Sequence record: MN508614.1
Strand: one strand, 5' to 3'
DNA: 64,000 bases
From: Escherichia phage ES12
Position numbers and translations under genes: made by a program. Below the pieces are notes generated by a model that was not told where the DNA came from, made no database searches, and worked only from the letters and a program-made list of their open reading frames with translations. This document shows, piece by piece, positions 5,250 to 8,440 of this stretch (position 1 is the stretch's first letter; every line of letters starts with the position of its first letter).

Positions 5250-5300
5250 GTTGTATAGTACCACAGTATGCTTTGGTTGTAAACCGTTTTGTGAAAAAAT
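5250..5300 (-). promoter_or_regulatory. Early sigma70 promoter cassette (GTTTAC -35, extended -10) with AT-rich UP element
   Basis: Minus-strand reading: AAAAATTTTTTCACAAAACGGTTTAC-(18 nt)-TGgTACTAT; near-identical copy at 61800-61850. Confidence 0.5.
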
Positions 5301-5307
5301 TTTTGAA

Positions 5308-5338
5308 ATAAAAAAGGGAGAGCCTCGGCTCTCCCTAA
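5308..5338 (-). terminator. Rho-independent terminator after the gene 52 unit
   Basis: GGGAGAGCC-tcgg-GGCTCTCCC hairpin followed by a U-run on the minus-strand transcript. Confidence 0.55.
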
Positions 5339-5340
5339 AA

Positions 5341-5490
5341 TTACTGCATGACTGTGATAACTGTCATGATAACACGTTGAATTCCGAACGCAAGAAGACC
5401 TCCTGCTACGGCAGGAACAACACCTAAACCCGCCAGTAAAATGCCACCAGATACTAATGCAGCGCTTGTGATACCAATGAATGGACTCAT
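5341..5490 (-). CDS. Hydrophobic microprotein, 49 aa
   Basis: Own translation: MSPFIGITSAALVSGGILLAGLGVVPAVAGGLLAFGIQRVIMTVITVMQ; its ATG overlaps the gene 52 stop (ATGA). Below the ORF-track size cutoff. Confidence 0.4.
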   Translation of the reverse strand: MSPFIGITSAALVSGGILLAGLGVVPAVAGGLLAFGIQRVIMTVITVMQ

Positions 5491-6819: not shown

Positions 6820-6960
6820 TTACCATACTAGTGAATGTAGTGCCATAATAACATCAGAAATGAAAAGCACGACTTGAATTAATCCGAACATTATTCCGTA
6901 ATATAATGCTATCAATAAAATAGCAAGGGCTAATGAATAGCCCAAGATTTTCTTAATCAT
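6820..6960 (-). CDS. Membrane microprotein, 46 aa (52.1 position)
   Basis: Own translation: MIKKILGYSLALAILLIALYYGIMFGLIQVVLFISDVIMALHSLVW; overlaps the next microgene by ATGA-type coupling. Confidence 0.4.
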   Translation of the reverse strand: MIKKILGYSLALAILLIALYYGIMFGLIQVVLFISDVIMALHSLVW

Positions 6961-7111
6961 TAGTAGATAACAACACAAATGTTAAATATGCACACATACC
7001 CTGAGCTAAAGCTTGCGAAAACACACTGCTGGCATCAATACAGATAGTTAAAACACATGCTACTATCCAACAAATAAATGAAATAACTCCTAATAATTTT
7101 GCAATATTCAT
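6953..7111 (-). CDS. ac: Membrane microprotein, 52 aa, Ac-like (acriflavine sensitivity) by position
   Basis: Own translation: MNIAKLLGVISFICWIVACVLTICIDASSVFSQALAQGMCAYLTFVLLSTND; sits between stp and 52 where T4 ac lies. Confidence 0.45.
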   Translation of the reverse strand: MNIAKLLGVISFICWIVACVLTICIDASSVFSQALAQGMCAYLTFVLLSTND

Positions 7112-7118
7112 ATTTTCC

Positions 7119-7199
7119 TCACTGGCGTCCGAAGACGCCTTTAGTTTTAAGATTATTACGATAGAACTGCATCACGTGTTCGTTGTGGAAATTACTCAT
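7119..7199 (-). CDS. stp: Stp peptide (26 aa), activator of the host PrrC anticodon nuclease
   Basis: Own translation gives [26 protein letters not shown], identical to the remembered T4 Stp; its ATG overlaps the ndd stop (TAATG). Confidence 0.85.
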
Positions 7200-7657
7200 T
7201 AATATGCCTGCAAAACGAATTTAAAGTTATCAGCCAACATACGGTTCATTTCTTCAAGTGTTTGATACTCGGAATGATGATTACGGGTAAACGCCAAAGC
7301 TAACTGACCTTTACCAAATCCTGTCGTCAGAGGTTTCATCTTAGAAGCAGGCAGATAAAATACTGTGTATACCATATTGTTATTTGCAATAGTACGTGCA
7401 AGCTGAGACCGACGTTGACGAATATGACTTAGAACTGCACTGAATCCTTGCTTAGAACGCTGATTACCTACATAAAATCGTGCAGACACACATGGATTAC
7501 TAAATGGACGACCATCTAATTTACTTACTAAAAAGTAAAATCCAGGTTTAGATAAAATATCTTTATGCGGAGTTCCTAAAAACCACTCACCACCCTTGAT
7601 TGTACCAATAACAGTAGCGCCTGCGTTGTTCAGATCAGTAACAGTCATGTATTTCAT
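7199..7657 (-). CDS. ndd: Ndd, nucleoid disruption protein
   Basis: 151 aa from [18 protein letters not shown]..., AGAGGA SD before this ATG; the track ORF extends 18 codons further upstream. Confidence 0.85.
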
Positions 7658-7715
7658 ATTAATTTCCTCTAAATTATTTTCTACTCCAAGGCCGCATGAA
7701 TACGCGGCCATTAAA

Positions 7716-7931: not shown

Positions 7932-8046
7932 AATTCACCTCAAGGAGTATAAAATCCAAACGCAGTTGTTGACCATCCCATCCAATATGGAAAATTTGCA
8001 CCAATGTAAAACATAAGAATATAAAACCAACCGCTCAGCAAATTCA

Positions 8047-8265
8047 TCATTTTACACCATTCCAAATTGTTTCAACCACAGATTTTAAACCATTTTGATG
8101 AATATCAATTCCGACTACTGCCATCAAATAGATTCCAACTACAACTGAACCTAAGGCAAAAATCAGCATGAAAATGAATAAAGCCGGAAAAATATTATCG
8201 AAAAACCATTCAATAAATGTAAAAGCACTGCGTTTACGCTTCATATTTTCCTCACATAAATCCAA
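8047..8265 (-). CDS. Membrane protein, 72 aa
   Basis: Two predicted transmembrane helices (IFPALFIFMLIFALGSVVVGIYLMAVVGI). Confidence 0.55.
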   Translation of the reverse strand: MDLCEENMKRKRSAFTFIEWFFDNIFPALFIFMLIFALGSVVVGIYLMAVVGIDIHQNGLKSVVETIWNGVK

Positions 8266-8363
8266 AGTAAACGTTTAATACATCAATCATTAAAACGATT
8301 GGGAATATACTCAAAACTATTAGTATTATAACTACATTCCATATAGCTTTAATAATCTTTTTC
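8252..8363 (-). CDS. Membrane microprotein, 37 aa
   Basis: MKKIIKAIWNVVIILIVLSIFPIVLMIDVLNVYFGFM; the longer track ORF reads through the upstream promoter cassette, so the start was placed at the ATG after the leader. Confidence 0.35.
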
Positions 8364-8384
8364 ATTTTCTGTTCCTCCGTAGTT

Positions 8385-8440
8385 GATAGGGTAATAGTAC
8401 CACGGAAGAACAGTCTTGTAAACAACTTTTTTAAAAATAT
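8385..8440 (-). promoter_or_regulatory. Early promoter cassette
   Basis: Minus-strand GTTTAC-(18)-TGgTACTAT followed by a GGAGGAACAGAAAATG leader. Confidence 0.45.

Follow-up and report, generated by a model that had tools for sequence, protein, structure and literature searches.

How far a reading frame of only 26 codons, lying between two phage genes, can be taken for a gene, and what its product would then do, is the question raised by the minus strand of the window (the whole stretch of DNA analysed, 64 kb long and 34.6% GC) at 7199..7119. The frame is intact, running from ATG AGT AAT to CGC CAG TGA over 26 codons and a TGA stop. Translated from 7199 down to 7119, without any stop within the codons, it yields the same 26-residue peptide that an earlier note on this DNA had read there and had identified as Stp, the product of the stp gene. 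Because the window holds 394 ATG-initiated ORFs of 26 codons or more, a frame of this length is in itself no evidence of a gene. The first alternative is that of an accidental frame in AT-rich DNA between real genes, with no useful product. The plentiful short ORFs speak for it, as do the weak Shine-Dalgarno element in front of the frame and the many GenBank records in which stp is left unannotated.

The peptide itself points elsewhere. It is 100% identical (26/26 residues) to the annotated Stp of T4 (NP_049878), which has been characterised experimentally, and the comparison with T4 Stp proposed in the earlier note is thus borne out. In the T4 reference genome stp is annotated at 165505-165585, between ac and ndd, and the two genes agree in length, strand, order and neighbours (ndd with its TAATG junction, and ac). 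A 181-nt alignment of the window with T4 contains five base differences, two of them in stp and both of these synonymous (His5 CAC/CAT and Asn15 AAT/AAC). The sole Pfam match of the peptide is to PF08133 (Nuclease_act, 'Anticodon nuclease activator family'), over the full length of the model, residues 1-26 falling on profile positions 1-26 with a score of 75.3 bits (E=2e-21) where the cut-off is 25. Among the PHROG families it belongs to number 6763 (E=4.4e-21), described as 'activator of host PrrC lysyl-tRNA endonuclease'. Over the 1151 nt around stp, the identity to the window is 100% in Shigella phage CM8, Escherichia phage ES26 and Yersinia phages PYps32T and PYps47T, and 99.5% in RB14; the phage of the window is T4-like, of the genus Tequatrovirus, and is not T4 itself. 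With the same peptide as T4, a match to the family model and the same position between ndd and ac, the earlier identification of the frame as stp stands. The best explanation, of which we are highly confident, is that a T4-like phage has its stp gene in this 26-codon frame, encoding an Stp with the T4-type role.

The surroundings of the gene are those of T4 and RB14 as well, the minus-strand order in the window (ndd.1, ndd, stp, ac, 52.1, gene 52 topoisomerase) being the same in both phages, with stp on the early-gene strand. The upstream neighbour ndd (7199..7657, minus strand) encodes the 152-aa nucleoid disruption protein, as assigned by PF06591 (Phage_T4_Ndd, E=1.6e-94) and by the T4 and RB14 annotation. 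The downstream neighbour ac (6953..7111, minus strand; PHROG 2501) encodes a predicted membrane protein of 52 aa, annotated as 'acridine resistance protein' in RB14 and T4. The same cluster holds the microgene 52.1 (6820..6960, minus strand), mapped over from the RB14 coordinates, whose 46-aa product belongs to DUF7396 (PF24129, E=3.9e-21). The stop codon of ndd (TAA, 7201..7199) and the start codon of stp (ATG, 7199..7197) share one base in a TAATG junction (7197..7201, minus strand), just as the earlier note had described, and this junction is also present in T4, RB14, T2 and TOPO13. At the other end, the ac ribosome-binding site GAGGAAAA (7113..7120, minus strand), conserved in T4 and RB14, overlaps the stp TGA (7121..7119) ahead of the ac ATG at 7111. 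A GC-rich inverted repeat, GGCCGCGTATTCATGCGGCC, was noticed further upstream on the minus strand (window 7689-7708), in the ndd.1-ndd spacer just 5' of the ndd ribosome-binding site; no T-run follows it.

The only Shine-Dalgarno-like element for stp is an AGG within the ndd coding sequence (7207..7209, minus strand), 7 nt 5' of the stp ATG, which is conserved in T4, RB14 and T2 and to which a function is ascribed by inference. As this element is weak (AGG only), the level of stp translation is likewise an inferred one. Judging from the arrangement of the two genes, translation of stp is likely coupled to that of ndd through the TAATG overlap. A sigma-70 consensus scan for a promoter of stp gave 15 sites, no more than in shuffled sequence (16.3 +/- 4.7), and no consensus site immediately upstream of stp. 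In T4 infection, Stp is made delayed-early (PMC3014915).

Whether the frame is maintained as a peptide was assessed from its relatives. Stp-like sequences were found by tblastn in 817 phage records, and a scan of IMG/VR added 61 loci; 422 records carry a peptide identical to that of the window. The extracted ORFs comprise 36 distinct peptide variants, 35 of which are 25-30 residues long, the exception being an in-frame fusion to the next gene. Codon analysis of the core (codons 2-18) covered 47 distinct 51-nt sequences from 70 loci in four phage groups. Eight residues (S2, H5, N6, H8, M10, Q11, R14 and K18) are invariant in 47/47 of these sequences, all of them present in the window Stp, and each invariant residue other than Met is encoded by at least two codons. 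Of the 17 codons, 8 vary at the first position, 6 at the second and 16 at the third, and the sole invariant third position is that of a Met codon. The 17 codons of the Kagunavirus K1ind2 are separated from those of the window by 9 changes, every one of them synonymous (0 non-synonymous). Free third positions around constant amino acids are the pattern of a translated peptide, and in four unrelated groups of virulent enterobacterial phages the first 18 residues of Stp are strongly constrained by purifying selection on the protein sequence. The full-length match to a curated family (E=2e-21), the identity with a characterised T4 peptide and this pattern of invariant residues all count against an accidental frame. 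That explanation, to which we assign practically no probability, is already refuted by the family match, the K1ind2 comparison and the codon analysis.

The conserved block of residues 2-18, delimited by homolog alignment and T4 mutant data as the functional core (codons 2-18; 7146..7196, minus strand), coincides with the region mapped by T4 stp genetics. Suppressor mutations that abolish T4 Stp function cluster at residues 4-14, and removal of the last 8 codons of T4 stp lowers activity only moderately (PMC3014915).

The distribution of the family reaches well beyond T4. Among T4-like phages (Straboviridae), variants are carried by Tequatrovirus and Gaprivervirus. The T2-type Stp (T2, TOPO13) has residues 1-18 and genomic position in common with that of the window, but it ends in another, longer tail, NFGILGFKK or NFGILGSKNS, and its gene has no UUCG hairpin of the kind described below. 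Virulent carriers that are not T4-like include Kagunavirus (K1ind2, ZCEC5), Drexlerviridae (Rtp, Tlsvirus U136B and GJL01, Nouzillyvirus P818) and Caminolopintovirus. The Stp-like microproteins of these phages (Rtp gp6, U136B_009 and those of K1ind2, ZCEC5 and Caminolopintovirus; 25-30 aa) share with the window the Stp core, which reads S-[NS]-[FWH]-H-N-E-H-[VI]-M-Q-[FWL]-[YH]-R-x-x-[LI]-K. The Drexlerviridae, Kagunavirus and Caminolopintovirus proteins lie, however, in unrelated genomic contexts, and they differ from the window Stp by another C-terminal tail or by an N-terminal extension of 5 residues. A search of 185,579 species-representative genomes of bacteria and archaea turned up no Stp-like sequence, and the family appears to be confined to virulent phages.

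At 18 loci of Rtp- and Tlsvirus-type phages, a gene of about 180 aa annotated as 'polynucleotide kinase' lies 0.5-1.5 kb from the stp-like gene (e.g., Rtp, L003, 495-1034; U136B, L011, 2151-2714). The similarity of this Drexlerviridae protein to T4 Pnk is confined to the C-terminal 3'-phosphatase half of the latter (residues ~136-297), and the protein contains a DxDGT motif; it is probably a phosphatase-only protein.

The single fused variant among the 36 was observed in IMGVR_UViG_3300023038_000081 (L028, 226-~450), where the stp-like ORF runs in frame into the downstream gene (…KGVFGGMKITDIEAF…). In relatives of this genome the stp stop and the start of the next gene overlap as ATGA, and the fusion could be an indel or a sequencing error.

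A further feature lies in the 3' end of the gene. Codons 21-25 (GGC GTC TTC GGA CGC C, 7139..7124) form a perfect 6-bp stem closed by a UUCG tetraloop, the hairpin GGCGUC-UUCG-GACGCC (7124..7139, minus strand) that was recovered by stem search and by fold prediction, being present in both the MFE and the centroid folds. It ends 3 nt before the ac ribosome-binding site (7120..7113). All GVFGR-tailed variants of the Straboviridae retain the stem, with only G.U-compatible or loop changes, and every one of these changes is either protein-silent or turns the last codon into a stop. The hairpin is absent from T2-type and from non-T4-like stp genes, and Kagunavirus and Rtp keep a GVFG[KR] tail without any hairpin. 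RNA-level selection on the hairpin is possible, but it is unproven because a test for covariation among the GVFGR-tailed T4-like variants showed no two-sided compensatory changes and because all the changes leave the residues of the peptide as they are. Read on the plus strand, this stem has a T-rich run behind it and a terminator-like score. The C(UUCG)G tetraloop was discovered in T4 mRNA (PMC4371310), and the abundance of its DNA motif in the window fits this origin and reflects the known preference of T4 for such hairpins: CTTCGG occurs at 39 sites against 12.6 +/- 3.4 in dinucleotide shuffles, a three-fold enrichment that no shuffle reaches.

These features bear on a second alternative, namely that the conserved element works as RNA, as a structure or signal for the expression of ndd and ac, and that the open frame is there by coincidence. 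The high stability of the C(UUCG)G hairpin, its location just 5' of the ac ribosome-binding site and its retention in all GVFGR-tailed T4-like variants agree with such a role, and so does the finding that Stp activity largely survives the loss of the last 8 codons (PMC3014915). Across codons 2-18, however, the variation of 16 of the 17 third positions around fixed amino acids is the opposite of what RNA constraint produces. These codons are unstructured in the centroid fold, and Rfam at E<=1 places no family over stp (a sub-threshold CrcZ match at 5294-5341 is unrelated to it). Also against this alternative are the stp genes of T2-type and non-T4-like phages, which do without the hairpin, and the ability of the peptide alone to activate the nuclease (PMC3014915). 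An RNA element with an incidental frame is very improbable; a purely RNA-level function is excluded for codons 2-18 and is tenable at most for the 3' tail, as a layer added to the peptide. A tentative version of such an added layer, to which we give a low probability, is a dual use of the stp gene of T4-type phages in which codons 1-18 supply the anti-restriction and PrrC-triggering peptide and the last 8 codons serve mainly to form the hairpin, as an element controlling mRNA stability or translation of the ndd-stp-ac transcript.

With stp established as a peptide-coding gene, the question of its role turns to T4, in which Stp counteracts restriction by EcoprrI and EcoR124I, both of type Ic, and leaves their modification activity untouched (Penner et al., 1995; reviewed in PMC3014915). 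The tRNA-Lys anticodon nuclease PrrC is held latent through its association with EcoprrI; Stp targets and inhibits EcoprrI and 'possibly alters the PrrC-EcoprrI interaction', whereupon the nuclease is unmasked (PMC1484252; PMC3014915). For Stp to activate PrrC, GTP must also be hydrolysed, and both dTTP, a probable co-activator, and DNA whose EcoprrI sites are unmodified must be present (PMC1484252; PMC3014915). An Stp peptide that is chemically synthesised or expressed from a plasmid activates the nuclease by itself, and the residues required for this activation and for the inhibition of EcoprrI largely coincide (PMC3014915). The earlier note had Stp release PrrC from its restriction-enzyme partner. 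The unmasking of PrrC by way of EcoprrI is upheld by the T4 literature, whereas a physical release is not, the sources speaking of an altered interaction and of unmasking; 'release' is a simplification that goes a little beyond them.

By analogy with the T4 experiments on the identical peptide, Stp of the window phage would be made early, probably via translational coupling to ndd, and would act on the type Ic complexes EcoprrI and EcoR124I so that restriction is blocked and modification spared. In hosts with prrC in a type Ic locus, the disturbance caused by Stp would change the EcoprrI-PrrC interaction and, in combination with GTP hydrolysis, dTTP and the presence of the enzyme on unmodified target DNA, would unmask PrrC. 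The unmasked nuclease would then cut tRNA-Lys 5' of the wobble base, and the phage would mend the tRNA with polynucleotide kinase/phosphatase followed by RNA ligase 1, both presumably encoded elsewhere in its genome. T4 Pnk and Rnl1 have no tblastn match within the 64-kb window, and their genes map at 134-137 kb in T4. With its peptide identical to that of T4, the window Stp can be expected to block the type Ic restriction enzymes EcoprrI and EcoR124I and thereby to unmask PrrC.

The DNA of T-even phages, with its glucosyl-hydroxymethylcytosine, generally withstands type I restriction enzymes, and for this reason the benefit of an anti-restriction peptide to the window phage is not obvious. 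A third alternative takes up this point, holding that T4-like phages keep Stp for another host target and that EcoprrI inhibition and PrrC activation are side effects. In its favour, the identical peptide is found in as many as 422 records although the hypermodified DNA of these phages is largely immune to type I enzymes, and a review of 2025 still calls the way in which Stp inhibits EcoprrI 'unknown, perhaps through physical interaction' (PMC12707154). The family is, however, also present in the non-T4-like Drexlerviridae, Kagunavirus and Caminolopintovirus, where anti-restriction may be of direct use, and the Pnk 3'-phosphatase-domain homolog near the stp-like gene at 18 Drexlerviridae-type loci fits an arms race with PrrC. 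The residues for nuclease activation and for EcoprrI inhibition also overlap largely (PMC3014915), and no alternative target of Stp has been reported. Activation of the PARIS system by Stp, as stated in a preprint (bioRxiv 2024.01.29.577857; 10.1101/2024.01.29.577857), was rejected, as the statement is unsupported by the paper that it cites: in Rousset et al. (2022), Ocr is the PARIS trigger and Stp is named only as the PrrC analogy (PMC9122126). We consider it unlikely that another target maintains the gene. The most fitting view of Stp is that of an anti-restriction peptide whose presence some hosts have learned to detect.

Current reviews describe the triggering of PrrC by Stp as a guard-like arrangement in which inhibition of a first-line defence sets off a second (PMC12409349; PMC9122126). 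The sensing of Stp by PrrC is analogous to that of Ocr- and ArdA-type inhibitors by PARIS and Ronin, T7 Ocr and ArdA being DNA mimics that also inhibit type I enzymes, are encoded by phages or plasmids and are sensed by these abortive-infection systems (PMC12409349). The inhibitors themselves are nonetheless dissimilar, Stp being a small basic peptide and not a large acidic protein: of its 26 residues, four are basic (R14, K18, K20, R25) and one is acidic (E7). Assignment to the DNA-mimic class, whose members are strongly acidic and have ~100 or more residues, was accordingly rejected. Two structural ideas found no support. As an amphipathic helix, residues 4-18 have a hydrophobic moment of 0.34 against 0.26 +/- 0.12 in shuffles, 26% of which reach the observed value. 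As for a single binding face, the invariant residues are unclustered on a 100-degree helical wheel, with 45% of random subsets equalling their arrangement.

The sequence of the stp gene dates from 1988, and the description of its two roles, inhibition of type Ic restriction and activation of PrrC, from 1995; it is an already known gene, and there is no new science in finding it. The practical lesson is one of annotation, as a gene with a well-documented function is lost both under a 60-codon cut-off and in many automated phage annotations, and stp can serve as a positive control for real functional genes far below that threshold. A 60-aa cut-off would leave stp out, and the remark in the earlier note that functional genes here fall below 60 codons is supported by the T4 record, in which 10 of the 17 features annotated from motA to rIIB are shorter than 60 aa, stp alone being functionally described in the notes of the record. 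Of 36 near-identical T4-like records, taken as a spread sample, only 5 give stp its name, and a CDS for it is lacking in at least 24. The record of CM8 (MK962750.1), although 100% identical over the 1151 nt, contains no CDS for either stp (8312-8400) or 52.1 (8016-8154). Of the Stp-like microgenes in other phages, which were observed in Rtp, K1ind2, STGO-35-1, ZCEC5, P818, U136B and GJL01 and at the IMG/VR loci L024-L076, several are unannotated as well.
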